In this document: positions 1 to 55,921 of the stretch, one piece after another
Position numbering within the stretch: the stretch's first letter is position 1
Layout: each line of letters starts with the position of its first letter
Origin: an uncultured Chromatiales bacterium
GTDB taxonomy: Bacteria > Pseudomonadota > Gammaproteobacteria > SZUA-140
Assembly: GCA_964388175.1 (NCBI GenBank)
Contig: CAYLYS010000003.1
Location: 6,870 to 70,869, forward strand
DNA length: 64,000 bases
Direction: 5' to 3'
Translations under genes and position numbers: made by a program
The notes under the pieces: model-generated
What the model saw: the letters and a program-made list of their open reading frames with translations, nothing else
Told to the model about the DNA's origin: nothing
Database searches by the model: none

Positions 1-1193
1 TAGTTCTCACCGGCGGCGTAGCCCTCGGGCTCATCGTGCGCATAGCGGTAACCCTTGCCGTAATCGAGTTCACGCATCAGCCGCGTCGGCGCGTTGCGCA
101 GCTTCATCGGCACTTCGAGTGAACCGTGGCCGCGCGCATCGCTCATCGCGTTGTTGAAGGCGGTGTAGACGGCATTGCTCTTGGCGGCGCAGCTCAGATA
201 GAGCACGGTCTGGGCCAGTGCGAGCTCGCCTTCGGGACTGCCGAGGCGTTCCAGCACTTCCCAGGCGTCGAGCGCCATCGTCAGGGCGCGCGGATCGGCG
301 TTGCCGATATCCTCGCTGGCCATACGCAGCACACGGCGGGCAATGTAGAAAGGGTCGCAGCCGGCTTCCAGCATGCGCGACAGCCAGTACAGCGCGGCAT
401 CCGGCGCCGAACCGCGCACCGATTTGTGCAGCGCGGAAATCTGGTCGTAGAACGCCTCGCCGCCCTTGTCGAAACGCCGGGTGCCGCCGGCGAGTACCTC
501 ATCGAGCAGGGATTCGGTGACCGCACGCGCACCGTTTTCTCCCTCGGGTGTCAGGTCGGAGACGATTTCCAGCAGATTGAGCGCGCGCCGGGCGTCGCCG
601 TCTGCAGCCAGGGCGAGACGGTCGCGCAGTTCGTCGGGCATGTCGAGGGCCAGTGCGCCCAGCCCCTGTTCGCGATCGGTGAGAGCGCGATCGATGACCC
701 GGCGCACGGCAGCGGGATCGAGCGGCTTCAGCACGTAGACGCGGGCGCGCGACAGCAGGGCGTTGTTGAGTTCGAAAGAGGGGTTCTCGGTCGTTGCGCC
801 GATGAAGATGAAGGCGCCTTCCTCGACGTGATGCAGAAAGGCGTCCTGCTGGGCCTTGTTGAAGCGATGCACCTCGTCGATGAACAGCACGGTGGCGTGG
901 CCGCGCGCGGTGAGGTTCTGCTGGGCGGCAGTGATGGCGGCGCGGATTTCCTTGACGCCGGAGAATACCGCCGACAGGCTGAGGAAATCGGCATCCACGC
1001 TCGCCGCGATCAGGCGCGCGAGCGTGGTCTTGCCGGTGCCGGGCGGTCCCCAGAGCACGAGTGAATGCAGCCGGCCAGCCTCTATCGCCAGGCGCAGCGG
1101 TTTATTCGCGCCGAGGATGTGTTCCTGACCGATGACGTCTTCGATGCGCTGGGGACGCATGCGGTCGGCGAGAGGACGCGGGTCCGTGCTCAT
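1..1193 (-). CDS. rarA: Replication-associated recombination protein A (AAA+ ATPase); C-terminus runs off the window
   Basis: Reverse-strand translation from ATG (revcomp of cat 1191-1193) gives MSTDPRPLADRMRPQRIEDVIGQEHILG...LWGPPGTGKTTLARLIAA (Walker A) and RarA/MgsA-type C-terminal region; synteny ftsK-lolA-rarA. Confidence 0.9.
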   Translation of the reverse strand, partial: MSTDPRPLADRMRPQRIEDVIGQEHILGANKPLRLAIEAGRLHSLVLWGPPGTGKTTLARLIAASVDADFLSLSAVFSGVKEIRAAITAAQQNLTARGHATVLFIDEVHRFNKAQQDAFLHHVEEGAFIFIGATTENPSFELNNALLSRARVYVLKPLDPAAVRRVIDRALTDREQGLGALALDMPDELRDRLALAADGDARRALNLLEIVSDLTPEGENGARAVTESLLDEVLAGGTRRFDKGGEAFYDQISALHKSVRGSAPDAALYWLSRMLEAGCDPFYIARRVLRMASEDIGNADPRALTMALDAWEVLERLGSPEGELALAQTVLYLSCAAKSNAVYTAFNNAMSDARGHGSLEVPMKLRNAPTRLMRELDYGKGYRYAHDEPEGYAAGEN

Positions 1194-1216
1194 TCTGCCT
1201 CCCTGCGGCTGCGTGC

Positions 1217-1858
1217 TCAGTCGTCGCCGAGCACGTCGACGCCGTCGGGGACGACGAACTCGAACAGCGCCGGATCGATGGCCACGTTGCGCTTCAGATT
1301 GCTGAAGCGGATCTGTACGCGCTGCTCCAGTGCGTCGACGATTTCCATGGTGGCGAGATGGTGGCCGTCGAAGCCGAGGAAAATGCGGCTGAAGGCGGAC
1401 TGTTCACCGTAAGGTTCGAGCATGACCCATTCGAGGCCGTCTTTGCTGCCGCCGTCGATGATCAGGAAGAGCTGTTCGAGCGGCTGCTGCGTGCTGAGCA
1501 GCACGGCGGGAGTATTGCCGACTGATTGATCCAGGGCGGAGCGGGTGACCTGATCGAGATCGGGCTCGTAGACCCACAGCGTGCTGCCGTCGGTGATGAG
1601 CAGCTGCTCGAAGGGGCTCTCATAGGACCAGCGGAATTTACCCGGCCGCAGAATACGCAGATTGCCGCGGGTCTGCTGCACCAGACGATCGTTCTGCGTG
1701 ATGATCTGATCGAAGTCCGCGCTCAGGGTGCGCAGCCCGTCGAAGAAGGCGTGCAGGCGGGCAATGCCGGTATCTTGAGCCGCGGCGAGGGCGGGCAGGA
1801 GCAGCGCGGCTAGGAACAGCAGCAGGGTCGTGGCGGTGTGACGCGGCAGGCGTTTCAT
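1217..1858 (-). CDS. lolA: Outer-membrane lipoprotein carrier protein LolA
   Basis: 213 aa with signal peptide ([28 protein letters not shown]) and LolA-like body; position between ftsK and rarA as in E. coli. Confidence 0.9.
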   Translation of the reverse strand: MKRLPRHTATTLLLFLAALLLPALAAAQDTGIARLHAFFDGLRTLSADFDQIITQNDRLVQQTRGNLRILRPGKFRWSYESPFEQLLITDGSTLWVYEPDLDQVTRSALDQSVGNTPAVLLSTQQPLEQLFLIIDGGSKDGLEWVMLEPYGEQSAFSRIFLGFDGHHLATMEIVDALEQRVQIRFSNLKRNVAIDPALFEFVVPDGVDVLGDD

Positions 1859-20965: not shown

Positions 20966-22705
20966 GTGTTTGCCACTGCACTCGCGGAGACCTTCCGCCG
21001 CGGCTATTCGCTGCGTTCGCTGCGTTCCGATATTCTCGCCGGCCTGACCGTCGGCGTGCTCGCATTGCCGCTGTCGATGGCGCTCGCCCTGGCCAGCGGA
21101 GTGCCGCCCCAGCATGGCCTCTATACGGCGATCATTGCCGGCGCCATCATTGCGATCTGCGGCGGTTCCAGGGTCAATATTTCAGGGCCGACCGCCGCCT
21201 TCGTCGTGGTGCTGTTGCCGGTCGTGCATCAGTTCGGCCTCGGCGGACTGGTGATGGCGGGGCTGCTTGCCGGACTGATCCTGGTCGCGCTCGGGCTTGC
21301 CCGCATGGGGCGGCTGATCGAATACGTACCGTATCCGGTCACTGTCGGTTTCACCGCCGGCATCGCGATCGTGATCGCCATGCTGCAGATCAAGGATTTC
21401 CTCGGCCTGGACGTGGCGGTGAGCGGCGATCATTTCTTCGACCGCGTTTCCGGCATCGTCTCCGCATTGCCGACCTTGCACTGGCAGGATACTTTCATTG
21501 CCACGCTGACGCTGGCGATTCTCATCGTCTGGCCGCGCCTCGGCACGCGCGTTCCAGGGCTGCTGGTCGCGCTCACCGCCGCGACGCTGGTCGGCTGGAT
21601 CTGCGGTCATTTCATCCCGGGATTCGACATCGCCACCGTCGGCAGCGTTTTTTCCTATACGCTCGATGGCGTGATCAAGGCCGGCATTCCGCCGCTCGCA
21701 CCGCAGTTCGTGTGGCCGTGGGAATTGCCGGGCGCCGATGGCCAGCCGATCGGTCTGTCGTTTCAACTGATCAATGACCTGCTCGGCCCGGCGCTGACGA
21801 TTGCCGCGCTGGCGGCGATCGAGTCGCTGCTGTGCGCCGTGATCGCCGACGGCATGGCGGGTACCCGCCATGACCCCAATGCCGAGCTGATCGGCCTCGG
21901 CCTGGGCAATATTCTCGTGCCGTTCTTCGCCGGCATCCCGGCGACCGCGGCCATCACGCGCACGGCGGCTAGCGTGCGCGCGGGGGCGGTATCTCCCATC
22001 GCCGCGGTGATCCATGCCATGGTCGTGCTGCTCGCGGTTCTGGCGCTGGCGGGTCTGCTGGGCTACGTACCCATGGCGGCGCTGGCCGCGCTGATGATGA
22101 TGGTGGCGTGGAACATGAGTGAAGCGAAGCATGTCCTGCGCATCATGCGCGCGGCGCCGGGCAGCGATGTCGCCGTGCTGGTGAGTTGTTTGGTGCTGAC
22201 GGTGGTGTTCGACATGACGGTCGCTGTCGCTATCGGCATCGGTCTGGCGGCGCTGCTGTTCATCAGGCAGGTGAGCGAACAGACCGAAGCGAAAGTGGTT
22301 TCTCATGCCGATGGATCGCACGCCTACCAGGTGCCTGCCGAGGTGCTGATCTATGATGTGAACGGTGCGCTTTTTTTTGGCGCGGCGCATCGCGCCATGC
22401 GCTCGCTCGAAGCGTTGCCGCCGGGAAAAAAGGTGGTGATCATGGATATGACGGACGTATCCATCCTGGATATGACCGCCATCATGCTGTTGCAGGAGTT
22501 GCTTACCAGCCTCGAACACCGTGGTACCGCGGTAATCATCAGCGGACTTCACCCCCGCCTGATTCTGCAGCTGCAGCGCGTGGGGGTTGTCGGGCGCCAG
22601 GGAAGACTCGAGTTTACCCGTGATGTGGCGGGCGGTATTGTCCGTGCGACGGTGCTGTGTGCTGGGCCGGGGGAGCAGGGCGGGGATAAACCGTCAACCG
22701 CCTGA
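20966..22705 (+). CDS. SulP-family anion transporter with C-terminal STAS domain
   Basis: GTG start; multi-TM body with SulP N-terminal motif (LRSDILAGLTVGVLALPLSMALA) and C-terminal STAS (VLIYDVNGALFFGAAHRAMRSL...). Confidence 0.85.
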   Translation: MFATALAETFRRGYSLRSLRSDILAGLTVGVLALPLSMALALASGVPPQHGLYTAIIAGAIIAICGGSRVNISGPTAAFVVVLLPVVHQFGLGGLVMAGLLAGLILVALGLARMGRLIEYVPYPVTVGFTAGIAIVIAMLQIKDFLGLDVAVSGDHFFDRVSGIVSALPTLHWQDTFIATLTLAILIVWPRLGTRVPGLLVALTAATLVGWICGHFIPGFDIATVGSVFSYTLDGVIKAGIPPLAPQFVWPWELPGADGQPIGLSFQLINDLLGPALTIAALAAIESLLCAVIADGMAGTRHDPNAELIGLGLGNILVPFFAGIPATAAITRTAASVRAGAVSPIAAVIHAMVVLLAVLALAGLLGYVPMAALAALMMMVAWNMSEAKHVLRIMRAAPGSDVAVLVSCLVLTVVFDMTVAVAIGIGLAALLFIRQVSEQTEAKVVSHADGSHAYQVPAEVLIYDVNGALFFGAAHRAMRSLEALPPGKKVVIMDMTDVSILDMTAIMLLQELLTSLEHRGTAVIISGLHPRLILQLQRVGVVGRQGRLEFTRDVAGGIVRATVLCAGPGEQGGDKPSTA

Positions 22706-22745
22706 TGGTGCGGCTGTCGATGCGCAGGCGGTTGCGGATGAAGCG

Positions 22746-22769
22746 TCGCGCCGGCGCAAGCCGGCGCGA
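22746..22769. terminator. Perfect 10-bp stem with GCAA (GNRA) tetraloop between convergent SulP and His-rich genes; candidate bidirectional terminator
   Basis: tcgcgccggc-gcaa-gccggcgcga; weak T-run at 22782-22786. Confidence 0.35.
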
Positions 22770-22785
22770 CGGCTGCGTCTAGTTT

Positions 22786-23046
22786 TCAGTGTGAATGGTC
22801 GTGCGGTTCGTGATCGTGACCCTGGTGGGAATGATCATGGGCACCCAGCTCGGAGTCCTTGTGGCTATGTCCGTGATCCGCATCTTTGCCGTGGTCGTGA
22901 GCGTGCGTATGGCTGTGATCATGGCCATGGGAATGCTCGTGTTGGTGCTGGTGCGCGTGGCGCGTGCCATCGCCATGGACATGATCGTGTTCATGCTCAT
23001 GTTTGTGTTCATGCTGGTGGCTGTGGTCGTGTTTGTGATCACCCAT
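22786..23046 (-). CDS. Histidine-rich (HxH)n putative metal-binding protein, 86 aa, ~40% His
   Basis: MGDHKHDHSHQHEHKHEHEHDHVHGDG...GHDHEPHDHSH; strong SD AAGGAGAG 7 nt upstream of ATG; the plus-strand 98-aa Met/Val-rich ORF is the mirror image of CAY/GAY codons and lacks an SD. Confidence 0.6.
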   Translation of the reverse strand: MGDHKHDHSHQHEHKHEHEHDHVHGDGTRHAHQHQHEHSHGHDHSHTHAHDHGKDADHGHSHKDSELGAHDHSHQGHDHEPHDHSH

Positions 23047-23112
23047 CGTTTTCTCTCCTTGAGTTGTATGTCAGCAGTGGACGCTGCATAGCGTGGCCGG
23101 CATGGCCCACGT

Positions 23113-23132
23113 CATTTTCTGCGCAGAAAATG
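23113..23132. promoter_or_regulatory. Perfect 20-bp palindrome CATTTTCTGCGCAGAAAATG ~70 nt upstream of the His-rich gene; candidate operator
   Basis: Exact reverse-complement symmetry read directly from sequence. Confidence 0.35.
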
Positions 23133-23416
23133 GGCTTTGCGCAAGGGAATGACGCGACCATCCCACGATACTAGAAACGGCCCCTGGCCGCGACTCGTCC
23201 GGAAACCATCGTGCGCAGCGGCGTCTATCGGGTTGAGTGATCGGCAGCGCTGCTGAGTGACTGAAGGGCGGGTGGAAAAAAAACGCTGCCGGAAACGCCC
23301 AAGCAATGATTGCTGCATGATATTCCCTCCCGGACTGGCGACACGGTCAGCGTAACAGGGGCGTGAGATGAAATCAATAAATACTCCTACCGCGGTGAAC
23401 TTGCCGTCTCGCTTAA

Positions 23417-23484
23417 AACGAAAGCCCCGCAGAGCGGGGCTTTCGATGAGAGACGCTGAAACCCGGGAGCTTGCCGGGTTTGTC
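23417..23484 (-). terminator. Tandem hairpins downstream of yccA (aaacccgg..ccgggttt; gaaagccccgc-agag-gcggggctttc followed by TTTT on the minus strand)
   Basis: Two GC-rich inverted repeats; the distal one is followed by a T-run on the coding strand of yccA. Confidence 0.5.
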
Positions 23485-23491
23485 GGCTGTT

Positions 23492-24160
23492 TCAGTCGTC
23501 GCCGCCGAAAGCACCGAGCAGATGCAGCAAGCTGGTGAACAGATTGTAAATGCTGACATACAGGGCAACGGTAGCGAGGATGTAGTTGTCTTCACCGCCA
23601 TGCACGAGCTGGCTGGTCTGGAACAGGATATATCCGGACATCAGCAGGATGAACATCGCCGATACCGCCAGACCGACCGCCGGCAGAGAAAAGATCGCCG
23701 CGCCCAGGCCGGCCAGGAAGGCGACCAGAATGCCGACGAAAAGAAAGCCGCCAAGGAAGCTGAAGTCCTTGCGGGTGGTGAGCGCATAGGCGGAAAGCCC
23801 GAGGAAGATCACGCCGGTGCCGCCGAGCGCCGTCATCACCAGTTGGCCGCCGTTGGGCAGCGCCAGATAGTGGTTCAGGATCGGTCCCAGGGTCAGACCC
23901 ATGAACCCGGTAAGGGCGAACACGGAGGCCAAACCCCAGGCGCTGTTGCGCAGGCGGTAAGTCAGGAACAGCAGGCCGAAATAGCCCAGCAAGGTGAACA
24001 GCAGCCCGGGGTGGGGCAGCTTGTACGCCATCGATACGCCGGCAGTGACGGCGCTGAAGAGCAGGGTCATCGCCAACAGCGTGTACGTGTTGCGAATCAG
24101 CCTGTTTTCGCTCAGCACCGTAGGGCGTGCACGTGCGATGGTGTTCTGCATGGACTTCAA
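23492..24160 (-). CDS. yccA: Bax inhibitor-1/YccA family membrane protein (FtsH modulator)
   Basis: 222 aa, 7 predicted TM segments, conserved BI-1 family pattern. Confidence 0.85.
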   Translation of the reverse strand: MKSMQNTIARARPTVLSENRLIRNTYTLLAMTLLFSAVTAGVSMAYKLPHPGLLFTLLGYFGLLFLTYRLRNSAWGLASVFALTGFMGLTLGPILNHYLALPNGGQLVMTALGGTGVIFLGLSAYALTTRKDFSFLGGFLFVGILVAFLAGLGAAIFSLPAVGLAVSAMFILLMSGYILFQTSQLVHGGEDNYILATVALYVSIYNLFTSLLHLLGAFGGDD

Positions 24161-24333
24161 CCTCCTCGGAAATAAATGGTCTTTTGCGAATATATAGGCT
24201 GCGGCGGGTGCTTACAAGGGCGCGGGGTTCCGGAGGGCCCCGGATGAGTCTGGTAGGCGGGCCTGGGGAGGGCGCTGTCGCCGAGGGGCGTTTATTGTAG
24301 AATGGCCGGCCCGGCGCCGCGCGCCGGGTGTGC

Positions 24334-24421
24334 GGAGAGGTGGCTGAGCGGTCGAAAGCGGCGGTCTTGAAAACCGTTGACTCGCAAGGGTCCGGGGGTT
24401 CGAATCCCTCCCTCTCCGCCA
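24334..24421 (+). tRNA. tRNA-Ser (anticodon TGA), CCA encoded
   Basis: GGAGAGG acceptor stem pairing with CCTCTCC, D-loop, anticodon loop cTTGAaa, long variable arm, TPsiC GGTTCGAATCC, discriminator G + CCA. Confidence 0.9.
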
Positions 24422-24832
24422 TTTCTCTCCCTTGAGCGGGCACGGTATGCGCTATTCCTCACCGCCGGCGTTTGGAGCGGCGGGAGGAACTTCGACCTCA
24501 TGATCCGAAGCGCTGATTCAATCCGGCAGGCATCACGGTTCATGATCACGATGCTGATCGGTTGGTCGATTCCCGGCGGGCTGCAAGGTGGTCGAGTTGA
24601 TCATGACGGTGATCATACTGACGAGCGACACGCATCTGAGCGGGTCGGTTTCGGGCATCAGTCATCGTTTCTGATTGGCAAACGAAAGTGCCGAGGACGT
24701 CTGTCAATCGGCGCCCGAAACGGGCCCGCTCCATGGTGGAGAGATCGAAAGGGCTATGGCGCAGACTATCGTTTTCATTTTCGCCGTTTTCTGTCCATTA
24801 CTCCTACAATATTCCCGACTATCCCGCTGTCG

Positions 24833-26391: not shown

Positions 26392-27771
26392 TTGTTTGAG
26401 CGACCTCAGGCGGGTACGCGAGCGATACTCGTTCAGCTCGATCTGCGTTCCGACAGGAAGCGGGAGAGCCGGGAAGAGTTCCACCAGCTTGCGGTGTCCG
26501 CTGGCGTCATGCCGGTCGCCGCGCTCGGCGGCACGCGCGACCGGCCCGACCCACGGCTCTTCGTCGGCGCGGGCAAGGCCGAGGAGATCCTGCAGCGGGT
26601 GCAGGAGACGGAGGCCGAACTGGTCCTGTTCAATCATGCGCTCACGCCGGTGCAGGAACGCAATCTCGAGCGCGAACTGAAGTGCCGCGTGCTCGACCGC
26701 ACCGGCCTCATCCTCGACATCTTCGCCCAGCGTGCGCGGACCTTCGAAGGCAAGCTGCAGGTCGAACTGGCGCAGCTCAAGCATCTGGCCACGCGCCTGG
26801 TGCGTGGCTGGTCGCATCTGGAACGGCAGAAGGGCGGTATCGGTCTGCGGGGTCCGGGTGAAACCCAGCTCGAAACCGACCGCCGCCTGATCGGCAAGCG
26901 CATACGCCAGCTCAACAAGCGCATCGAAGGTGTGCGACGTCACCGTGAACTGAGCCGGCGTTCCCGCCGCAAGGCGACGGTGTACGGTGTTTCTCTGGTC
27001 GGATACACCAACGCGGGCAAGTCGACCCTGTTCAACCGCCTCACCGGCGCCGGGGTCTACCAGGCCGATCAGCTGTTCGCAACGCTCGATCCGACGCTGC
27101 GCCGCCTGGAACTGCCGGGCATGGCGGACGTGGTGCTTGCCGACACGGTGGGTTTCATCAGCGATCTGCCGCCCGATCTGGTCGCCGCTTTCCATGCCAC
27201 CCTGGAAGAAACCCTGGAAGCGGATGTGCTGCTGCACGTCATTGACGCGCACGACGAGGAGCATGCCGCCCAGATCGAGGAAGTGAACAGCATACTGGTC
27301 GATATCGGCGCGCAGCAGATTCCGCAGATCGAGGTGTACAACAAGATCGATCTGCGCGAGGATGATCATCCTCGCGTCGATTACGATGCGGCGGGGCGGC
27401 CGAAACGGGTGTGGCTGTCGGCGCGCGACGGTCGCGGCGTCGATCTGCTGCGCACCGCGGTCGCACAGTTGCTGCAGTCCCTGCATAATGACGGCGCCGG
27501 CAATGGCGCCATGAGTGGGGCAGCAAAGCCGTTCCAGGTCCGCCTGCAGCCTGGCGCCGGGCGTATCCATGCGCGTCTGCATGCCTGGAAGGCGGTGCAG
27601 CATGAACAGACCAACGAACAGGGGGAATGGCTCGTCGATGCGCTGCTGACACCCGCCATGCGTGACTATCTGTGCGCTCAGGAGGGTTGTGAGATCGGTG
27701 TCAAAGACGACGCCGGCGAGCTTGTCGCTTGCGGCGAAACCGCCAGCACCCTAAAATCTGCGACCGGATGA
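26392..27771 (+). CDS. hflX: GTPase HflX
   Basis: TTG start giving MFERPQAG... collinear with E. coli HflX; G-domain VSLVGYTNAGKSTLFNRLT, DTVGF. Confidence 0.9.
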   Translation: MFERPQAGTRAILVQLDLRSDRKRESREEFHQLAVSAGVMPVAALGGTRDRPDPRLFVGAGKAEEILQRVQETEAELVLFNHALTPVQERNLERELKCRVLDRTGLILDIFAQRARTFEGKLQVELAQLKHLATRLVRGWSHLERQKGGIGLRGPGETQLETDRRLIGKRIRQLNKRIEGVRRHRELSRRSRRKATVYGVSLVGYTNAGKSTLFNRLTGAGVYQADQLFATLDPTLRRLELPGMADVVLADTVGFISDLPPDLVAAFHATLEETLEADVLLHVIDAHDEEHAAQIEEVNSILVDIGAQQIPQIEVYNKIDLREDDHPRVDYDAAGRPKRVWLSARDGRGVDLLRTAVAQLLQSLHNDGAGNGAMSGAAKPFQVRLQPGAGRIHARLHAWKAVQHEQTNEQGEWLVDALLTPAMRDYLCAQEGCEIGVKDDAGELVACGETASTLKSATG

Positions 27772-29957: not shown

Positions 29958-30014
29958 TCGCCTCGCTGCGCGTCTGATCGGCGCCGGACCATGAAAGGCG
30001 CCCGACTGGACGGA

Positions 30015-31208
30015 ATGAGCAACCGCTGGCTGTTGCCGGACGCGGTCGATGAATTTCTGCCGCCGCAGGCAGAAGCGCTCGAACGGCTGCGCCGCGAGCT
30101 GCTCGATATGTTTTTCAGCTGGGGGTATGAGCTCGTCATGCCCCCGCTGATCGAGTATATCGAGTCGCTGCTGGTCGGCACCGGCAACGATCTCGACCTC
30201 GAAACCTTCAAGCTGATCGATCAGTCCACCGGGCGTCTGCTCGGCCTGCGTGCCGACATCACGCCCCAGGTCGCGCGCATCGATGCGCATCGCCTGCAGC
30301 GTCAGGGGCCGCAGCGGCTGTGCTATCTCGATCCCGTCGTGCGCACGCGGCGCAACGGTTTCGCCAGTTCGCGCAATCCGCTGCAGCTGGGCGCCGAACT
30401 CTACGGTCATGCCGGCATCGAAAGCGACATCGAAGTGCTGCGCCTGATGGTGCGTACGCTGCGGGTAGCCGGGCTGTCGCATTTCCACATCGATCTGGGG
30501 CACGTCGGTATCGTGCGTGCGCTGGCCCGCGAGGCTGGTCTCGATCAGACCCAGGAGTCATTCCTCTTCCACGCGCTGCAGCGCAAGGCGCGGCCGGAGA
30601 TCGAATCCTATCTTGCCGGCCTCTCCATCGATACCGCCTGCCGGCGCCGCCTCATCGCCCTGGTCGATCTCAATGGCGGCGAGGGCGTGTTCGACGAGGC
30701 CCGCAGCCAATTGCGCGGTGCCGGACGCGAGGTCATGCAGGCGCTGGAATCACTGCAGCAGATGGCCGAGGCGGCGCAATGCCAGTTTGCCACCATCGAG
30801 CTGCATTACGATCTCGCCGAACTGCGGGGCTACCGTTACCAGTCCGGTGTGGTGTTCGCCGCTTTCGTGCCGGGACACGGACGGGAAGTCGCTCGCGGCG
30901 GGCGCTATGACGATATCGGTCGCCTGTTTGGCCGCGCTCGTCCGGCGACCGGCTTCAGTACCGATCTCAAATCACTGCTGGCCTTGGGTTCAGCGCCCTC
31001 CGTGCGCCGCCGGGCGATCCTGGCGCCGCCATGGCGCGAGGACGACGCACTGCGGCGCCTGATCCGCACCCTGCGCGCGGATGGCGAGCGCGTCATCTAT
31101 ACGCTGCCAGGCCAGCAGATCGATCTCGCCGAGCTCGGTTGCGATCGCGTGATCGAGCACCGCGACGGCAAATGGGTAGTGCTTCCCGCAGCGGACGCCC
31201 GCCAGTAG
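30015..31208 (+). CDS. hisZ: ATP phosphoribosyltransferase regulatory subunit HisZ (alternative start 29991)
   Basis: Class II aaRS-like HisZ fold (MSNRWLLPDAVDEFLPPQAEALERLRRELLDMFFSWGYELVMPPLIEY...); located between hflC and purA. Confidence 0.8.
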   Translation: MSNRWLLPDAVDEFLPPQAEALERLRRELLDMFFSWGYELVMPPLIEYIESLLVGTGNDLDLETFKLIDQSTGRLLGLRADITPQVARIDAHRLQRQGPQRLCYLDPVVRTRRNGFASSRNPLQLGAELYGHAGIESDIEVLRLMVRTLRVAGLSHFHIDLGHVGIVRALAREAGLDQTQESFLFHALQRKARPEIESYLAGLSIDTACRRRLIALVDLNGGEGVFDEARSQLRGAGREVMQALESLQQMAEAAQCQFATIELHYDLAELRGYRYQSGVVFAAFVPGHGREVARGGRYDDIGRLFGRARPATGFSTDLKSLLALGSAPSVRRRAILAPPWREDDALRRLIRTLRADGERVIYTLPGQQIDLAELGCDRVIEHRDGKWVVLPAADARQ

Positions 31209-37961: not shown

Positions 37962-38546
37962 TCAGCGCGGTGTGCGGACTGACGCGCGATGGCCGTTGAC
38001 GCCTGGCTTTGACAGGGCCGGCGCCTCGGCTTCCTGTGCGTCGGGCGTCCGGCGACTTTTCTGCCGGCACTTGTGGCAATCGTCCGTTTCGATGGTCAGA
38101 CAGCGCTGCGGCTCGTCCGGATGGGCGCAGCCGGTGAACCGGCGTATTTGTTCCAACAGTGCTGCATCCTGAAAGGCGGTGCCGTGTCCGCAGCGACGGC
38201 AGAGCAGGCGGTGTGCGGGCGTGCTCTGCTGGCCCGAGCGCGCGTAGAGAATCGAGTACACGGTCTTGACGCCGGTAAGGCCGGGTATCCATTCGCGCAC
38301 GAGCAGGCCTGCCGATTCGAAATCACCCAGCACACGGTAGATGGTCGCTATGCTGAGGCTCGTGCCACCGGCAAGCAGATTCATGAACACATCACTGGCC
38401 GAGACGGGGCCGGACATGGCTTCGACTGTCCGCAGAATGCTGACCCGCGTTGCCGTCGGGCGCAGCCGGACGTCGCGCAGCCGTTCGGCCGGGTTGAGAA
38501 GCGCTTCGCGAGGGCGCAGTGACAACGCGGCGTGAGGTGACTTCAT
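37962..38546 (-). CDS. Fur-family metalloregulator (Fur/Zur-like) with ~30-aa C-terminal extension
   Basis: Start at MKSPHAALSLRP after AAGGAGA SD; wHTH (ATIYRVLGDFESAGLL), HRLLCRRCG and CHKC metal-site motifs. Confidence 0.72.
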   Translation of the reverse strand: MKSPHAALSLRPREALLNPAERLRDVRLRPTATRVSILRTVEAMSGPVSASDVFMNLLAGGTSLSIATIYRVLGDFESAGLLVREWIPGLTGVKTVYSILYARSGQQSTPAHRLLCRRCGHGTAFQDAALLEQIRRFTGCAHPDEPQRCLTIETDDCHKCRQKSRRTPDAQEAEAPALSKPGVNGHRASVRTPR

Positions 38547-38622: not shown

Positions 38623-38970
38623 TCAGGCAGTGAGGTACACGGAGCATAGCAGTGATAAGACGAAGCTGACCGCCGCCACGGTGAGCGCAATCCGCTCCTG
38701 ATAGGAAATCAGCAGGATCCACAGGCCGGTGACCGCCGTCAGCACGCCGAACCAGGCGACGGGTCCGAGCGCCGCTCCCCAGGCCATGATGCTGTATACG
38801 AGCGCCAGCGCCAGCAGCAGCCATCCCGAGCCGCGCAGCAGCCACTGCGGCAGGACGCCCGGCGCGCGCTGCAACAGTTGCCGGTAGTGGCGTTCCATGG
38901 ACAGACACAGTGCCGCCATGCCGGCATGGAGCGCGCTGATGATTGCGACGACCAGCACCAGTTTGCTCAT
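38623..38970 (-). CDS. Small 3-4 TM membrane protein, DUF3325-like partner of PepSY membrane proteins
   Basis: 115-aa hydrophobic ORF overlapping the stop of the upstream PepSY-TM gene by 4 nt; family assignment from memory of the typical receptor-PepSY-DUF3325-DUF3649 operon. Confidence 0.45.
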   Translation of the reverse strand: MSKLVLVVAIISALHAGMAALCLSMERHYRQLLQRAPGVLPQWLLRGSGWLLLALALVYSIMAWGAALGPVAWFGVLTAVTGLWILLISYQERIALTVAAVSFVLSLLCSVYLTA

Positions 38971-40994
38971 GCATGCCCCTTCGCGAGATCATCGGCTCCG
39001 ATCCGCGCACCGATGGAGATCTCAGCGATCTCGGCGGTATTGCCGGTGTCGGCGCCCGGGGATTGCGCCGGTTTGCGCTGTGCCGCAACCATTCTGATGT
39101 GGACCTTCCATGCTGCCCAGGCGAACATCAGTCCCAGGGCGATGAAGACCGCCTCGATGCTGACCAGGATCCAGTCGCCGCTGGACAGGGTGGTCAGAAG
39201 ATGACGGTCGGTGGTGATGAAGTTCAATACCGGCAGCAGCAGATAGGCGGCCGCGGCGAGGAACAGCACTTCGCGCCATGTCTGCATGACCGGTCTGAAC
39301 AGGGCATAGATGAGCATCAGCAGCCAGGCAATGAACAGGCTGTTTATTTCCCAGGCTGCGCGGTCTTCCAGATCCACCGGCAGCAAACGGTTCGACCAGA
39401 AATAGACGGCAAGGGCAAAAGGGAGGCCCGCCACGGCGACCACGTTGAGTCTTTCGACCAGCATGTGCCCGAAGTGCCACGTCCCCCTGGCGTGCTTGGG
39501 GCGGCGCTTCACCGTCCACAGGACGAGACCGGTGGCGATCATCGCCGATCCCAGGATGCCGGACACGAAGTACAGCCAGCGGGTGAGGGGCCTGGCGAAC
39601 TGTCCTTCGTGCAGCCCGAGCATGGAGCGGCCGAATACGTCGGTCGCCGGCGTGTCCTGATTCGAAGAGATCATGCGTTCGCCGGTAACGGCATTGTATT
39701 GAGCGTTGGTTCCGCGTCCGCGGATCGTATCGATATTCGCACGCGCCAGTTGCAGCCTGGCCGGGGCCGAATCGCTCGCGGCCGTGATCGTGACGGCGCG
39801 GATTTCCTGATGGCCCCATTCGCTCTCCACCTGACGCACGATGGAGGAGAGATCGGCGAACGAGGCGGCCTGCCGATGCACCGGGTTTATTGCCGCGGGC
39901 TCCTGATTTCCCGCCTGGCCTCTTCCCTGATTTGCGCCGCCCGCGTTATTGCCGCGGCCGGCTCTTTCAGCAGGCTGATCTGCCGAACGCTCGCCGCCGG
40001 CGCTGCGCTCATTGCGGCCGGTCTGATTCCGTTCGCCCGCGCCGGATCTTTCCATGCCCATTCCTTCACGACCCGCGCCTTCACGGCCAGTTCCTTCTCG
40101 ACCCATTCCTCCGCGTGCCGGCGGATCGGCGACACTTTCATCGCCGGTTGCATCTGCATTCGCAGACGCGTTGTTCCCGCCGCGCCCACCACCGCCGCCA
40201 CCACCGACGGTACGGCCGACGAGCCGGGTGCTGCCGATCTGGGAACTCAATTCCGCGTAGTATGTCCGCTGGTCTTCGGCATCGAATCCGTAGGTCAGCG
40301 GCACGCCGAGCGGCATATAGGCGTACATGAAGAACAGCAGACCGCTGTAAGTGATCATCAGATAGAAGGGTAGTGCGAGCACGCCGAGCACGTTGTGCGC
40401 ATCGAGCCAGGAGCGCCGTCCTTTCGCCGCCCTGAAGGTGAAAAAATCCTTGAAGATCTTCTTGTGCGTGATGACGCCGGTGACGATGGCGATCAGCATG
40501 AGCATGGTGCAAATGCCGACGATGCGAATTGCCCAGTCGAAGGGAATGTAGTGGAGGGCATAGTGCATCCGTACCAGGGCACGGCCGCCGGCCGTCGCGC
40601 GCGGCTCTGCGCCCGGTTCCACCACCTCGCCCGTGGCGGTATCCAGAATGACGCCTTCCGTTCTGCCGCGATTCTGGCCCGGTTCAGGCGCCAGACTCCA
40701 ATTGGCCGTCAATTGATTGCCGCTGCGGCCGGTGTTGATGAGGTTGACGGTCCAGCTCGATGACTGCTGGCTTGCCGGATTGGCGAGCAGATGCCGGTAC
40801 GCGATGTCGAACTGATCGGCGTTGCTCATCGCATTGCTGGCGCGCATCGGCTGCTCCGGCTGCATCCAGCGCGTGATCTCGCGATTGGCGTAGCTGGCCG
40901 TCCCGGTCACGAAGACGAACAGCAGTATCCAGCCGACGACCAGTCCGGTCCAGGTATGCAGCCACGCCATGCACTGGCGGAAACCTTCCTTCAT
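38967..40994 (-). CDS. PepSY-associated TM (PiuB-like) membrane protein with a Gly/Arg/Glu-rich low-complexity insertion
   Basis: Start MKEGFRQCMAWLHTWTGLVVGWILLF after GAGG SD (track ORF extends to 41099 but overlaps the upstream gene); TM helices with conserved His; internal tandem-repeat region 39900-40200. Confidence 0.7.
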   Translation of the reverse strand: MKEGFRQCMAWLHTWTGLVVGWILLFVFVTGTASYANREITRWMQPEQPMRASNAMSNADQFDIAYRHLLANPASQQSSSWTVNLINTGRSGNQLTANWSLAPEPGQNRGRTEGVILDTATGEVVEPGAEPRATAGGRALVRMHYALHYIPFDWAIRIVGICTMLMLIAIVTGVITHKKIFKDFFTFRAAKGRRSWLDAHNVLGVLALPFYLMITYSGLLFFMYAYMPLGVPLTYGFDAEDQRTYYAELSSQIGSTRLVGRTVGGGGGGGRGGNNASANADATGDESVADPPARGGMGREGTGREGAGREGMGMERSGAGERNQTGRNERSAGGERSADQPAERAGRGNNAGGANQGRGQAGNQEPAAINPVHRQAASFADLSSIVRQVESEWGHQEIRAVTITAASDSAPARLQLARANIDTIRGRGTNAQYNAVTGERMISSNQDTPATDVFGRSMLGLHEGQFARPLTRWLYFVSGILGSAMIATGLVLWTVKRRPKHARGTWHFGHMLVERLNVVAVAGLPFALAVYFWSNRLLPVDLEDRAAWEINSLFIAWLLMLIYALFRPVMQTWREVLFLAAAAYLLLPVLNFITTDRHLLTTLSSGDWILVSIEAVFIALGLMFAWAAWKVHIRMVAAQRKPAQSPGADTGNTAEIAEISIGARIGADDLAKGHA

Positions 40995-41002
40995 GACGAC
41001 CT

Positions 41003-41347
41003 CTATGGTTTGAGCAACAGCGCCAGCAGTGCCAGCGCGATGACGGTTGCAGCGGTTCCGACCCAGGCGCGGGTAGCGCTCGCCGCGGTGAATACCCACA
41101 GCACCGCGATCAGCCAGACGGTGAAGCTGAACAGCATGGCGCCGTAGGTGGCCAGTTCATTGGGGCCGGGCAATATGCCGGTGATCACGGGCACGCTCAG
41201 GCCGGCGATCAGAAACCCGCCGACCGCGGCAGCCAGGACACGGGAAAAGACCGCCCAGCGATGGCGCGCGCCATCGGACAAAGTGCGGGATCCGGGTATT
41301 TTCATCAGCGCCGGCATACCAGGCGCGCCTGCGCGTTTACTGTTCAT
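41003..41347 (-). CDS. Small membrane protein (DUF3649-like, iron-uptake associated)
   Basis: 114 aa, 3 predicted TM; sits between the binding-protein and PepSY genes with overlapping stop/start. Confidence 0.45.
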   Translation of the reverse strand: MNSKRAGAPGMPALMKIPGSRTLSDGARHRWAVFSRVLAAAVGGFLIAGLSVPVITGILPGPNELATYGAMLFSFTVWLIAVLWVFTAASATRAWVGTAATVIALALLALLLKP

Positions 41348-43911: not shown

Positions 43912-46245
43912 TCAGAACGAGGCCGTGTAGGTGACGTAGTAGGCGCGCCCCGGTTCGTTATAGGTCAGCGCGCCGGCGCCCGTGGTGATCACCCGGTCTT
44001 CCAGCGGTCCGGCGGCGACGTTTGCCGATGCCAGGCGCGCGGCGCGCTTGATCTCACGGTCGAACAGGTTGCTGACGCCGAAGCCGACACGATGGTGACG
44101 GTTGAATTCCCAGGTGCCGTTGAGCCCGACCAGTACGTAGGAAGGACGCTCGCGCACCGCAAGTCCGGTCATGGGATAACCGTGGTAGCTCACCGTGCGC
44201 GGCGTGCGGCGGCCGTAGAGCGTGCTCGTCAGCTGCATCGAAAAGCTTTCCGTGGTGCGCCAGAACAGCGAGCTGTTGAGTGTGTATTTCGGGATGATGG
44301 ACAGTGGCTGGCCGGTTTCCGTGCTGTGGTTCTTCAGCATCCAGGTGATGTTGTTGTAGAACTTCAGCCGGTTTCCGTTCGTGCCGAGCAGCGGCACGTT
44401 GAAGCTGCCCTCGAAGCCTTCGACCAAGGCCTTGCCGCCGTTCTTCCACTGGAAGTTGGCGGGACTGTCTATCACGCCGTCTTCCAGGTCTGCCAGGAGA
44501 TCCTGTATCGACACCGGGGAGTCCGCGACGATGCGGTTCTTGTAGTCGTTGCGGAAGTAAGCGAGGCTGCTGTCCCAGCCGTTCGGGCCGTTCCAGGCCA
44601 CACCGATTTCCTTGTTGACGCTGGTTTCCGCATCCAGGTCGGGGTTGCCGCTGACGCCGCAATCGTAATCGTCGCCGCTGATCAGGCCCAGATCGTTGCC
44701 GTTGTACGGGCAGGCGCCGCCGAGATTAGACAGGTAGCTCGGCGCGGTCTGGTAGAGCGTGGGTGCCTTGAACACGCGCGCGATACCGCCCTTGAGAGAA
44801 AAACCGCCGCCGAGCTCATAGAAGGCATTGAAGCTGGGTGACCAGTTGTTGCCGAACTGGCTGTGATGATCGAAGCGGATGCCCGGGATCAGCATCAGCG
44901 ACTGGCCGACGGCGATGCTGTCTTCCAGATAAAAGGCGATGGTGTCGTTTTTTATTTCGACGAAACCATCGCCGCCGGGTGTCGAACCGGCGCCACCGCC
45001 CGCATTCTGCAGCAGCGCATTGTTGTCGAGCAGTTTCGTGCTGCGGAACTCGATACCGGTGGTGAGGATCTGGTCGAGGCTGCCGAGGCTCAGCGGCGTG
45101 TTCAGCTCACCGTTGACGAAGTAGTTGTCCATGTCCGAGCGCTGCGTGTCGCCCTCGGTACCGCAGTTGGCCTCGCCCATGCCGCCCGCACCCTGGCGGC
45201 AGTTGATCGTGTCCGTGTTCTCGTACTGGAAGAGCAGGCGCGAACTGCCGAGGCTGTCCCACGTTCCGCGATGCGTCACAGCGGCATTGCGGCGATAGAC
45301 GCGGCGGGTCTCGGCGCCTCTGTCGGCCCATTCCTGCATCAGGGCGCTGGGGGTGGTATTGGCCGCTTCGCCTGCGTAGATGTTGCCCTGGCGGCTGAAG
45401 CCGGCCTCGAATTCCACGACCTGGTCGGGCGTCAGATCCCAGCGCAGCAGGCCGGTGGCGTCGCGGTTGCGGCGGCCTTCGCGGCCGGCGATCCAGTTGG
45501 GGTCGCCTTCGTCGGTGACGCCGTTGATGGTGGGCTCGTCACCGTCGGTCTTGGCCGCACTGCCGTACAGGCGGAACGACAGATCGCCGACAATCGGGCC
45601 GGCGAGATTGAAGCCCAGGCGGCGCGTGCCGTTTCCTTCCAGTTCGTCTTCCGGCTTGCTGGCATAGGCGGTGATGGAGCCGGAGAAGTCGCCGGTGGGC
45701 TTCTTGGTGATGATGTTGATCACACCACCTGAAGCGCCGGAGCCGTAGCGCGCGGCGGCCGGGCCGCGGATGATCTCGATGCGCTCGATCTGGTCGGCCG
45801 GCACCCAGTTGGTGTCGCCACCGGTGTCGCGGTCGCCGGTGCGGCGCGTGATGGCGCCCTGGCGCGACTGCACGGGTTTGCCGTCGATCAGGATCATGGT
45901 GTTTTCCGCACCCATGCCGCGGATGTCGATTTCGCGCTGATTGCCGTAGGCGCCGACCGAGCTGGCGCCGGAGAGGCTGATGCCGGGCTGGGTCATGAGG
46001 ATCTCGGACAGATCGTTGGCGGGCGGACGATACTTGAGATCCTCTGCCGTGATGATCGAAACGCCCAGCGACTGCTTGAGTTCCTCCTCGGCGGTGTTGA
46101 CCACGCGGAGTGTGGACAGGGTGACTTCGGGCGTTTCGTCCGCTATCGCGTCGATAGTTTGCGCGGCTACGGGCAGCATGGGGGTCAGTACCAGGCCGAG
46201 GGCGGCAGCCATCGGCTTCAGGCGGAAGACGTGTTGTTCTCGCAC
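43912..46245 (-). CDS. TonB-dependent siderophore receptor
   Basis: Signal peptide, TonB box ETPEVTLSTLRVV, plug domain (GGVINIITKKP), 22-strand barrel, terminal ...YVTYTASF; GTG start with GGAGAG SD. Confidence 0.9.
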   Translation of the reverse strand: MREQHVFRLKPMAAALGLVLTPMLPVAAQTIDAIADETPEVTLSTLRVVNTAEEELKQSLGVSIITAEDLKYRPPANDLSEILMTQPGISLSGASSVGAYGNQREIDIRGMGAENTMILIDGKPVQSRQGAITRRTGDRDTGGDTNWVPADQIERIEIIRGPAAARYGSGASGGVINIITKKPTGDFSGSITAYASKPEDELEGNGTRRLGFNLAGPIVGDLSFRLYGSAAKTDGDEPTINGVTDEGDPNWIAGREGRRNRDATGLLRWDLTPDQVVEFEAGFSRQGNIYAGEAANTTPSALMQEWADRGAETRRVYRRNAAVTHRGTWDSLGSSRLLFQYENTDTINCRQGAGGMGEANCGTEGDTQRSDMDNYFVNGELNTPLSLGSLDQILTTGIEFRSTKLLDNNALLQNAGGGAGSTPGGDGFVEIKNDTIAFYLEDSIAVGQSLMLIPGIRFDHHSQFGNNWSPSFNAFYELGGGFSLKGGIARVFKAPTLYQTAPSYLSNLGGACPYNGNDLGLISGDDYDCGVSGNPDLDAETSVNKEIGVAWNGPNGWDSSLAYFRNDYKNRIVADSPVSIQDLLADLEDGVIDSPANFQWKNGGKALVEGFEGSFNVPLLGTNGNRLKFYNNITWMLKNHSTETGQPLSIIPKYTLNSSLFWRTTESFSMQLTSTLYGRRTPRTVSYHGYPMTGLAVRERPSYVLVGLNGTWEFNRHHRVGFGVSNLFDREIKRAARLASANVAAGPLEDRVITTGAGALTYNEPGRAYYVTYTASF

Positions 46246-50971: not shown

Positions 50972-51374
50972 AGCGGGGCGGTAGGTATACCAGGGTTCCT
51001 TGGCGCCGCGGCCGGGAACAGGCCAAGGGTCTGCCTGCAGAGCAAGCCGTTACTTCGAAGTTGCCAGAACGATTGCTATTTATGCAGGTTTCCTGTTGTT
51101 CTTAACGACAATCGCAATTTCCGTTGCAATATATGGGAAAATCCTTGCCATTAGGGGCGATAAACCGACCTACGGGAGGTTTGCAAAAATCCTGCTCTAT
51201 ACTGTGATGCTATACATCTCGCTTCCGTATATGCAGTTAGAGCTAAATGCATTCTATGGCCCTGCCGTATCCAAGGCGCCATCATTGTAGGCCGAAGAAT
51301 TGGGACGGTCATGCTCCGCTGATTGCTCGACACCAGCGCAAAGGAAGGACTTCCAAGCCACTAGAGGCGATACC

Positions 51375-51717
51375 GTATTTTGTGCCAACGCACCAGGAAT
51401 TGGTGGCGGGGTGGCTGCAGGATACGGACCGCAAGACCAAGCCGTTTCTGTTCCATCACGACGCGGTGAACAGCGTCAGCGAGGTGACGGGGCACAATGG
51501 CGGGACAACGCAAAGTGTCCTCTACCGATCATTCGGGCAGACGCAATCGACGACGGCAGCAGCCCGAACCGACTGAAGTACACCGGGCGAGAGGATGATG
51601 GGACGGGGCTCTATTACTATCGAACCCGGTACTGCTGGGTTTTAGGGCGGGGATCAATTTCTATGCCTATGCAGGGAATAATCCGATCAATGCCAATAAT
51701 CCCAATGGATTGGATAA
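51375..51717 (+). pseudogene. rhs fragment 1: YD-repeat end plus RHS core remnant, broken across three frames
   Basis: HQELVAGWLQDTD...FHHDAVNSVSEVTG..SVLYRSFGQ (frame A), SSPNRLKYTGREDDGTGLYYYRTRY (frame B), AGINFYAYAGNNPINANNPNGL (frame C). Relative to the intact copy at 52790-53010 there is a deletion of the YDPAIGRFVSEDPIRFK segment. Confidence 0.55.
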
Positions 51718-52152
51718 CTCAATAGTGTTTCATTCGGCGGAACTGCAGCAATCCTGCTTCTCGGAATAGGTGGAAATGTGAGCGTTGGCATTTCTGTTCC
51801 TGATGACTTGACTAATTGGCGTGGCTGCCGGGTATTCGGCGGTGCGCAAGCAAACCTAATGGCGGGCGGGGGTGGCTACTTGGGGTATGGTGTCAGCGCG
51901 GGAAAGGTCGAATCGGTTGGGCCATTGGATCCCAGTTTTAATTTGGATAATGGCTGGTATGCTGAGGCTGACGCAGGTATCGGGAGTGCGGCTATTGGTG
52001 CAAGCCTCCAAGGCCACGGAAAGCCTTTTAGTAGTTTGCCTTCTGGTGGAAGTGTCACTCCGCTTCCAAAGGTTGGCCAAGGCGCCGGCGTTTGGGTATC
52101 GCCGATAGGAACCTATGGTTCTGCGACTGCAGCATCATATACACATCGGTGA
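51718..52152 (+). CDS. Orphan rhs C-terminal tip CT1: Gly-rich, glycine-zipper-like putative toxin domain, out of frame with its core remnant
   Basis: …SFGGTAAILLLGIGGNVSVGISVPDDLTNWRGCRVFGGAQANLMAGGGGYLGYGVSAG…SATAASYTHR; reading frame opens right after the core NPNGL motif. Confidence 0.4.
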   Translation, partial: LNSVSFGGTAAILLLGIGGNVSVGISVPDDLTNWRGCRVFGGAQANLMAGGGGYLGYGVSAGKVESVGPLDPSFNLDNGWYAEADAGIGSAAIGASLQGHGKPFSSLPSGGSVTPLPKVGQGAGVWVSPIGTYGSATAASYTHR

Positions 52153-52543
52153 TGTCGTAGATGGCGTGACAGCGCTGTTCGGTGCTGTTGCCAGCTCTCC
52201 CGCGCAGAGTGCCGCAGCAAGCGGCGGGTTCCTTTATTTACCCGAACAAAGTAAACAACAACATGATGATTTCGGTATATTCAAAGTGACCAAGTATAGG
52301 AGCTTTGCTTCCTATTATGAGCTAGCGATTCTCCACGCATCCAAGTGGATTCTCACGGCTGTTTTATTTGTTTCTGCATTTATCTTAATCTTAGCGTGTA
52401 TTGATTTGATGGCGCCAATTTTCGCTGGCGCCTACGATTGGCGCACGGTCATGTGGGGAATCTTCATGATGATACTTTCTTACACAATTCGTCGCATGAT
52501 TGTTCGCCGATTGACATCAATCCGAAAAGAAACGAACTTCTGA
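52115..52543 (+). CDS. Putative immunity-like membrane ORF after CT1 (start uncertain; likely GTG/ATG within 52160-52420); contains a frameshifted echo of the conserved toxin tail (ASGGFLYLPEQSK)
   Basis: C-terminal part …KWILTAVLFVSAFILILACIDLMAPIFAGAYDWRTVMWGIFMMILSYTIRRMIVRRL has 2 TM helices. Confidence 0.3.
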   Translation: MVLRLQHHIHIGDVVDGVTALFGAVASSPAQSAAASGGFLYLPEQSKQQHDDFGIFKVTKYRSFASYYELAILHASKWILTAVLFVSAFILILACIDLMAPIFAGAYDWRTVMWGIFMMILSYTIRRMIVRRLTSIRKETNF

Positions 52544-52690
52544 CGAAGAGAACCTACCAGGGCTCGACCACCCGCTACGTCTACAACGCGGCGAATAGCG
52601 TTGGCACAACCACCTACACCTACGATGTGCTCTACTGCCTGACCGCCGTCAACCGTCCTGACACCGCCAACAACGAAGCCTATACTTTGG

Positions 52691-53563: not shown

Positions 53564-53574
53564 CGGACGAGAGT

Positions 53575-53763
53575 ATGTTATACGGACTGTTAACATTGTT
53601 AATAGGTATTCTGATGTTGCTTTTTTCTCTGAATATTCTAACGCTGAAGAGTGCTCAGGCGGGAGATTTATGTGTGCTAAAGGAAAGATATGGCGCTTTT
53701 TTTAAGGTGCTTGGCGCGCTGATGATTGCCCACGCTCTGTTTACTCTTATAGGGGTTTACTAA
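53575..53763 (+). CDS. Putative immunity protein for CT2 (62 aa, 2 TM)
   Basis: MLYGLLTLLIGILMLLFSLNILTLKSAQAGDLCVLKERYGAFFKVLGALMIAHALFTLIGVY; starts 12 nt after the CT2 stop. Confidence 0.45.
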   Translation: MLYGLLTLLIGILMLLFSLNILTLKSAQAGDLCVLKERYGAFFKVLGALMIAHALFTLIGVY

Positions 53764-53816
53764 TTCTTAAAATTCTTGAGATTGCGATAAGCACAGGCGT
53801 TTTTGGCGTCCTCGGT

Positions 53817-54053: not shown

Positions 54054-54074
54054 TGAGCCTGCCTGTGGCTCGGT

Positions 54075-55534: not shown

Positions 55535-55537
55535 ATT

Positions 55538-55906: not shown

Positions 55907-55921
55907 GGGGCAGCGTAAGCT

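Follow-up and report, generated by a model that had tools for sequence, protein, structure and literature searches.

An 86-amino-acid histidine-rich protein, encoded in a 64,000-nucleotide stretch of contig CAYLYS010000003.1 from an uncultured Chromatiales bacterium (the whole stretch is called the window below, and positions are counted from its first letter), is the second cistron of a conserved gene pair and not an independent gene. The first cistron is a small, very basic and unannotated open reading frame (ORF). At a probability of about 0.62, we favour a reading in which the two form one unit, the His-rich protein would bind metal alongside its basic partner, a perfect 20-bp palindrome lying 5' of the His-rich gene is coincidental and control would act further upstream, at an AT-rich block. 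An earlier reading made from the letters of the window (the sequence-only reading) had instead described a stand-alone gene governed through that palindrome. The two cistrons and their ribosome-binding sites are as follows.

22786..23046, minus strand: gene of the His-rich protein, an 86-amino-acid ORF, recognized by ortholog conservation and composition
23053..23060, minus strand: Shine-Dalgarno sequence of the His-rich gene, AAGGAGAG, 6 nt 5' of the ATG, read from the sequence
23112..23318, minus strand: conserved small ORF of 68 amino acids, isoelectric point (pI) 12.0, the first cistron, recognized by phmmer homologs and codon constraint
23325..23330, minus strand: Shine-Dalgarno sequence of the small ORF, GGAGGG, read from the sequence; L001, the nearest related locus, has GGGGAG there

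The His-rich protein begins MGDHKHDHSHQHEHKHEHEHDHVHGDGTRH... and reads in full MGDHKHDHSHQHEHKHEHEHDHVHGDGTRHAHQHQHEHSHGHDHSHTHAHDHGKDADHGHSHKDSELGAHDHSHQGHDHEPHDHSH. It holds 34 His residues (39.5%), 12 Asp and 6 Glu, with a pI of 6.2 and a mass of 10.0 kDa; it has no Cys, and its longest His run is a single residue. The N-terminus carries neither a signal peptide nor a hydrophobic segment. The sequence-only description of an 86-amino-acid product at 22786-23046 with roughly 40% His in an alternating pattern, no signal peptide and a strong Shine-Dalgarno sequence was accurate in each of these respects. Sites of the AGGAG type are kept at the same position in orthologous loci.

The nearest relative found, the gammaproteobacterial metagenome-assembled genome L001 (YccA identity 77%), carries an 87-amino-acid His-rich ortholog at the same position, aligned without gaps at 71% identity. 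Between the two genes, differences at codon positions 1, 2 and 3 number 18, 18 and 54, and the proportion of nonsynonymous differences (pN) is 0.22 against a synonymous proportion (pS) of about 0.98, at which synonymous sites are saturated. An alignment of six His-rich proteins at 52-70% identity (L092, which ends at a contig end, was left out) has invariant His columns throughout and no internal indels. Two alternating-His runs of 11 and 12 flank a (K/G)DG(T/S) turn (GDGT in the window), and are followed by an HDHG(A/K)(D/G) segment (of the HDHG(K/A)D type in the window), three more H-x-H groups and a conserved C-terminal EPH.H.H (EPHDHSH in the window). By this alignment the protein has a defined architecture, more than a biased composition. 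Because the H-x-H register is invariant and the turns are conserved at 52-70% identity, the pattern argues for defined coordination sites and not bulk composition. Searches of Pfam and NCBIfam gave the His-rich protein no match, including to CooT (PF10133) or DUF8180 (PF26551), and a sequence-profile search of the PDB with the His-rich profile found nothing.

The small ORF occupies the 370-nt interval between yccA and the His-rich gene and was overlooked by the sequence-only reading. An ORF in the same place in L001 is 53% identical to it. A word-index protein search with the small ORF gave no match; a full phmmer scan of 1.84 billion representatives returned seven true homologs of 60-80 amino acids, together with three long repetitive matches that we judged spurious. 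Conservation clusters in the last ~30 residues, in a C-terminal core H..F(K/R)T..G.GPFL.S.DGRVIPLRKA.FL with 19 invariant alignment columns; the N-terminal and middle parts are variable, and an N-terminal K-R-F-x-x-R-F motif is partly conserved too. Across 36 pairwise comparisons, differences in the core number 159, 182 and 546 at codon positions 1, 2 and 3, and the small ORF is therefore translated and constrained. Purifying selection thus acts on both ORFs.

No relative of the small protein was found in Pfam, NCBIfam or PDB searches. Residues ~44-60 (23139-23189; G.GPFL.S.DGRVIPL) resemble a segment of the SAMHD1 HD domain, LGHGPFSHMFDGRFIPL, with 10 of 17 positions identical; the match is non-significant (E about 1 against PDB profiles) and probably due to chance. 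Supposed likenesses to AbrB/MraZ loops and to ribosomal L31/L36 motifs were unsupported by any search and were dropped.

Searching for homologs and their neighbourhoods placed the His-rich gene in a conserved family paired with the small ORF. The arrangement of small ORF, a gap of 27-65 nt and a His-rich ortholog of 86-87 amino acids is present in seven independent lineages: the window; L001 (L081 is from the same organism); L082/L083; L084; L085/L086; L089-L091; and L092. The gap in the window, 65 nt, is the longest of the family (27-64 nt elsewhere). At the loci linked to yccA, intrinsic terminators part yccA from the pair, with equivalent hairpins in L001, L082 and L084. In the window, the pair is flanked by two such structures.

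23415..23444, minus strand: intrinsic terminator of yccA, GAAAGCCCCGCTCTGCGGGGCTTTCGTTTT, read from the sequence; it separates yccA from the two-gene unit
22745..22770, no strand assigned: GC-rich hairpin GTCGCGCCGGC-TTGC-GCCGGCGCGAC between the convergent His-rich and SulP genes, read from the sequence

The GC-rich hairpin overlaps in part a terminator-like match at 22763-22779 and probably terminates transcription in both directions. Bounded by it and by the yccA terminator, positions 22786-23318 of the minus strand would make up a self-contained two-gene transcription unit. The idea of an independent, stand-alone gene was accordingly not borne out, since a conserved small ORF precedes the His-rich gene as first cistron.

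At two further loci the small ORF was found in other surroundings. At L087 (1474-1950, minus strand) it stands alone with a consensus promoter, an intrinsic terminator and a convergent gene downstream, keeps all invariant residues and has no His-rich ORF within 6.4 kb; it is not beside yccA and is divergent from an operon of an extracytoplasmic function (ECF) sigma factor, DUF3619 and DUF3106. At L088 (917-1111, minus strand), where the contig ends shortly 3' of the small ORF, it again lies away from yccA and is divergent from a DUF3619 gene.

The family is known from a restricted group of uncultured Gammaproteobacteria. Neither the His-rich protein nor its six-member profile retrieved any ortholog in protein searches, an exact look-up of the window's proteins gave no match, and a metagenome scan yielded nothing beyond L001 in a second copy. 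For five loci the His-rich genes are listed on their contigs, yet the 15-billion-protein collection lacks the exact ortholog sequences, which hides the family from searches at the protein level; for this reason the empty protein searches are uninformative about how rare the family is. At L092 (1357-1545, minus strand) the gene call is an antisense 62-amino-acid ORF laid over the His-rich gene, whose real start is GTG. Automatic pipelines overlook or mis-strand such genes, so that families of this sort are under-counted.

The conserved pairing could also be explained by a small ORF that acts in cis, as a ribosome-arrest or translational-coupling leader. Its conserved C-terminal 30 residues would then stall or position the ribosome near the stop and, on a signal such as metal, unmask the Shine-Dalgarno sequence of the His-rich gene. 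Leader and arrest peptides of this kind include SecM-secA and TnaC-tnaA, which share with the pair a short upstream ORF, a highly conserved C-terminal segment and a regulated gene close behind. The conserved segment of the small ORF is about as long as the ribosomal exit tunnel while the rest varies, the ORF lies 27-65 nt upstream of the His-rich gene throughout, and the AlphaFold2 model of the small protein is of low confidence, all of which suit a leader. Folds predicted at L082 (4160-4260), L084 (1200-1295) and L089 (690-810) pair the Shine-Dalgarno sequence of the His-rich gene with Phe-Leu codons (UUCCU) close to the 3' end of the small ORF, a pairing that is missing in the window; this hints at translational coupling, though the folds are no more stable than those of shuffled sequences. 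No intercistronic fold beats shuffled sequence, and neither a structure common to the loci nor a conserved RNA switch was found, a difference from the known leaders. The partly conserved N-terminal motif also speaks against a leader, as does L087, where the small ORF persists by itself under its own promoter and terminator with its invariant residues intact. Because the small ORF also occurs alone in this way, a trans-acting partner is favoured, and we consider a leader peptide unlikely.

We return to the His-rich protein and its probable ligand. Metal binding is the most reasonable reading of its sequence, which suggests a cytoplasmic protein that would bind several divalent transition-metal ions (Ni, Zn or Co), with some 6-9 per monomer predicted. 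Along a beta-strand alternate residues face one side, and H-x-H pairs are classical metal ligands. The AlphaFold2 model from single sequence (mean predicted local distance difference test (pLDDT) 69; predicted template modelling score (pTM) below 0.3) is mostly coil with one beta-hairpin, formed by residues 18-23 and 29-34 around GDGT, a block with pLDDT of about 85. Pairs on neighbouring strands, for example in this hairpin at the DGT turn, would form the metal sites, and the loaded protein would serve as buffer, store or donor together with its small basic partner. The model of the partner (pLDDT 63, pTM below 0.3) shows a helix followed, in the conserved C-terminal part, by a beta-hairpin and a further helix.

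By sequence, the only detectable relatives of the His module are His-rich tails on, or proteins beside, CooT nickel-accessory proteins. In protein P0016, a CooT domain (Pfam E = 1.7e-19) is fused to a His-rich tail ending GHEKEPHDHKH, which can be aligned with the last 60 residues of the window protein (pairwise E = 1e-10, composition-adjusted) through the motif DG(T/V)KH(A/S)HPHGH ... GHEKEPHDH.H. Its profile score of 115.6 bits compares with 95.3 +/- 3.9 for shuffles with His positions fixed, and was reached by 1 of 500. HxHADGTxHxH repeats are also found at the N-terminus of several DUF8180 proteins, one of which has a CooT gene directly behind it. The module therefore recurs in nickel-chaperone contexts. 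At L093 (214-651, plus strand, and 768-1382, minus strand) the fusion of CooT and His-rich tail adjoins a gene for a CobB/CobQ-type amidotransferase, and at L094 (2599-3245, plus strand) a stand-alone CooT gene comes directly after the gene of a DUF8180 protein with HxHADGTxHxH repeats; the two loci point to an as yet undescribed metal module, a His-rich beta-hairpin, that recurs around CooT. The window protein shares the HxH-x-DGT-x-HxH unit with the DUF8180 N-termini. It differs in being a free-standing 86-amino-acid protein with neither a CooT nor a DUF8180 domain, and its neighbour, an unannotated basic small protein, has neither domain either.

The closest functional analogues are Hpn and Hpn-2, whereas the CooT-associated tails are closest by sequence. 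Hpn and Hpn-2 are small His-rich nickel-binding proteins of Helicobacter pylori (PMC4671568) under NikR control (PMC7055735). Like them, the window protein is small (60-90 amino acids for the group), cytoplasmic, free of a signal peptide and about 40-47% His, and the role proposed for it is theirs too: sequestration, storage or delivery of divalent metal. The differences are considerable. BLASTP with an Hpn sequence produced no alignment at E <= 100; poly-His runs and EEGCC Cys pairs mark Hpn, whereas the window protein is Cys-free and keeps a strict H-x-H register; Hpn is not known to have a conserved small partner gene; and Hpn is confined to gastric Helicobacter, the His-rich family to uncultured Gammaproteobacteria. 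The sequence-only gene call and its general guess of a Ni/Zn/Co-buffering or metallochaperone peptide hold. A hint of nickel comes from the CooT relatives and from the operator geometry described below; His, Asp and Glu chemistry would suit zinc equally well.

The composition might also serve a purpose unconnected with metal, as in a disordered protein that buffers pH with its ~34 imidazoles, protects against stress or binds haem or another ligand. The mostly coil model fits such a protein, no metal enzyme, transporter or recognizable metal-regulator box lies nearby, and the gene order beside yccA, hfq, hflXKC and cysG is of a housekeeping kind. A disordered buffer is hard to square with an H-x-H register and turns that stay fixed across 52-70% identity, which imply defined coordination sites, or with a module that recurs fused to or beside the CooT nickel-accessory family. 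We judge a non-metal role slightly less likely again than a leader peptide. The resistance-nodulation-division (RND) pump beside the pair in L082 was considered as a metal link and rejected, its motif in transmembrane helix 4 (TM4) being of the multidrug (AcrB) type and not the heavy-metal type.

The palindrome that gave rise to the operator proposal does exist as described, perfect over 20 bp, and lies 66 nt upstream of the His-rich ATG. It lies within the small ORF.

23113..23132, no strand assigned: perfect 20-bp palindrome CATTTTCTGCGCAGAAAATG, inside the small ORF and not a separate element
21853-21872: perfect 20-bp palindrome CATGGCGGGTACCCGCCATG, inside the SulP gene
27355-27376: perfect 22-bp palindrome CGCGAGGATGATCATCCTCGCG, inside hflX

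Read on the minus strand, the first of these is CAT TTT CTG CGC AGA AAA plus the TG of the TGA stop, that is, H-F-L-R-R-K-stop, so that the supposed intergenic operator turned out to be the last six codons and the stop of the small ORF. At the equivalent DNA of eight orthologous loci, perfect palindrome arms reach no more than 1-4 bases; the C-terminal KA.FL is conserved as amino acids and the DNA beneath it is not. All three perfect palindromes of at least 20 bp in the window fall within coding sequence. In first-order Markov simulations of the window (n = 300), 15% hold at least one such palindrome, so that chance alone can account for the one in the small ORF; three in 64 kb is more than the Markov expectation. 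As RNA, the palindrome forms a hairpin of -9.7 kcal/mol (z = -1.18), not unusually stable and missing from the minimum-energy fold predicted for the region around it.

A stand-alone His-rich gene under a dimeric, possibly metal-responsive regulator bound to this palindrome is therefore improbable, more so than either explanation weighed above. The site is perfect and single in the window (one copy, even when up to 3 mismatches are allowed), sits 66 nt upstream of the ATG (about 70 nt by the earlier estimate), and is followed by the longest intercistronic gap of the family, with room for an internal promoter. Nevertheless, it is coding sequence of a conserved small ORF, it is missing at all eight orthologous loci, its hairpin is weak, and SulP and hflX contain perfect palindromes that are as long or longer. 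A promoter scan of 22600-23600 found no sigma-70-like promoter, and none between the palindrome and the His-rich gene. Non-conservation largely refutes the proposal; operator function is not supported, and we regard the palindrome as a by-product of the small-ORF codons. No dedicated regulator can be deduced from it. More generally, a perfect palindrome of 20 bp points to an operator in a GC-rich genome only where it is conserved and lies outside coding sequence.

That the plus-strand Met/Val-rich ORF (22795-23091, 98 amino acids) is the expressed frame and the His frame merely its antisense shadow, a possibility raised by the sequence-only reading, deserves next to no credence: this ORF is open in both the window and L001, and at L092 the automatic gene caller picked an antisense ORF in place of the His frame, yet codon for codon against L001 the pN of the Met/Val frame (0.38) exceeds the pS (0.26), showing no constraint, whereas the His frame combines the low pN of 0.22 with saturated synonymous sites and is therefore the coding gene, with a strong Shine-Dalgarno sequence and a start and stop conserved at every locus.

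The likelier seat of transcriptional control for the pair is the AT-rich block (about 23363-23390) 5' of the small ORF, judging from positional comparison. No DNA of the region is more AT-rich than that lying between this ORF and the terminator of yccA.

23363..23390, minus strand: AT-rich core of the candidate promoter/operator, GTAGGAG-tatttattgatttc-ATCTCAC, located by positional comparison, its role inferred

Near-consensus promoters TTGACA-N17-TAATAT/TATTAT, with AT-rich dyads in the spacer, are present at L087, L088, L089 and L092, and downstream of the -10 element all four share a conserved TTC(A/C)TACT. When the upstream regions of seven loci were anchored on the AT-rich block, imperfect inverted repeats of the form GTAnnAn-N13/14-nTCnTAC lined up, with the window version GTAGGAG-N14-ATCTCAC in the same position. 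This likely marks a promoter-proximal repressor site for the putative two-gene unit.

The enterobacterial NikR operator is GTATGAT-N13/14-ATCATAC (PMC545781), also given as GTATGA-N16-TCATAC (PMC7055735). Several of the orthologous promoters resemble NikR-repressed ones in having a 27-28-bp imperfect inverted repeat of the same spacing, whose TCATAC-like right half overlaps the -10/+1 region: TTATGAT-N14-GTCATAT at L082, GTATTAC-N13-TTCATAC at L087 and GTAGGAT-N13-TTCCTAC at L084, and the upstream dyads at all three match 11 of the 14 operator positions. The window site, by contrast, matches only 10 of 14, which is not exceptional; a NikR box here is attractive by eye and statistically non-significant, and no nikR homolog was found in the 64-kb window. 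Fur-family boxes fared no better. Best matches to the Fur 19-mer, the Escherichia coli Zur 23-mer, the Bacillus subtilis Zur and PerR 7-1-7 boxes and Nur were 10/19, 13/23, 8/14, 8/14 and 7/12, each reached by at least 74 of 300 shuffles, and hence no match was significant. Rfam covariance models run at a permissive threshold over 22400-24700 gave nothing near the gathering score except tRNA-Ser, and thus revealed neither a riboswitch nor a leader RNA.

Several observations weigh against the favoured account of a metal-handling pair controlled at the AT-rich block. For the block, twenty other places in the window match the NikR operator as well as or better than the window dyad; a position weight matrix built from the six other loci ranks the dyad 14th in the window; its 9/12 match to the NikR core is reached by 28 of 300 shuffles; and an unbiased dyad search picked out a different pattern, GTATTA-N8-TAATAC, in 5 of 9 loci, which is barely significant and excludes the window. 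For the pairing, the lone small ORF of L087 means that the small protein need not have a His-rich partner. For metal, the case draws on composition and on similarity of a low-complexity module, both AlphaFold2 models are of low overall confidence (63 for the small protein, 69 for the His-rich one), and no nickel, zinc or cobalt enzymes or transporters were found near the His-rich gene in the window, nor were genes for carbon monoxide dehydrogenase (CODH), hydrogenase or urease found anywhere in it. As to the palindrome, the closest relative compared has only 77% YccA identity, which leaves formal room for a very recent, lineage-specific function.

Domain searches of the neighbours confirmed that the His-rich gene sits between a SulP transporter and yccA.

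20966-22705, plus strand: SulP/STAS transporter, converging on the His-rich gene
23492-24160, minus strand: Bax1-I/YccA protein, upstream of the pair on the same strand

The window is otherwise ordinary core chromosome, running through lolA, ftsK, trxB, clpA, icd, purB, cysG, SulP, the gene pair and yccA to tRNA-Ser, miaA, hfq, hflXKC, hisZ and purA. A HisZ-like gene (tRNA-synt_His family, 405 amino acids; 29991-31208, plus strand) lies between hflC and purA, about 7 kb from the His-rich gene; its proximity to a gene of 34 His codons is probably coincidental, this gene order being common. A divergent Fur-family protein (37962-38438, minus strand; Pfam FUR 30.9 bits; 32% identity to E. coli Fur over 109 amino acids) is encoded next to a PepSY_TM membrane protein and near a TonB-dependent receptor; the group also takes in 38967-41099 and 43912-46245, both on the minus strand. 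These genes probably constitute an iron-related cluster with its own Fur paralog, and no link between it and the His-rich locus was found. A stretch at about 51000-57500 is low in GC (0.49-0.57 against about 0.64 elsewhere), has no long ORFs of high GC content at third codon positions and may be a horizontally acquired island; it gave most of the chance matches in our scans for AT-rich motifs.

A bolder version of the favoured reading is that the basic protein of 60-80 amino acids and the fixed-register (HX)n protein make up an undescribed two-component metal-handling module, with the His module independently recruited onto CooT chaperones. We hold this to be doubtful, if somewhat less so than a leader peptide. 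The H-x-H beta-hairpins of the His-rich protein would there take up several ions of Ni, Zn or Co. The pI-12 partner might then deliver or release metal to client enzymes; alternatively, it might bind nucleic acid with the metal-loaded His protein as co-regulator, which, if true, would be a new type of metal-sensing autoregulatory pair.

His-rich metal-binders are already known as Hpn and Hpn-2 in Helicobacter and as tails on nickel and zinc chaperones. New here are the strictly conserved H-x-H register, its presence in a free-standing protein and the pairing of that protein with a conserved, unannotated and very basic one. If the pair does handle metal, it would represent a new cytoplasmic module for metal buffering or delivery in environmental Gammaproteobacteria, and a small-protein family for which neither Pfam nor NCBIfam has a model would gain a function.

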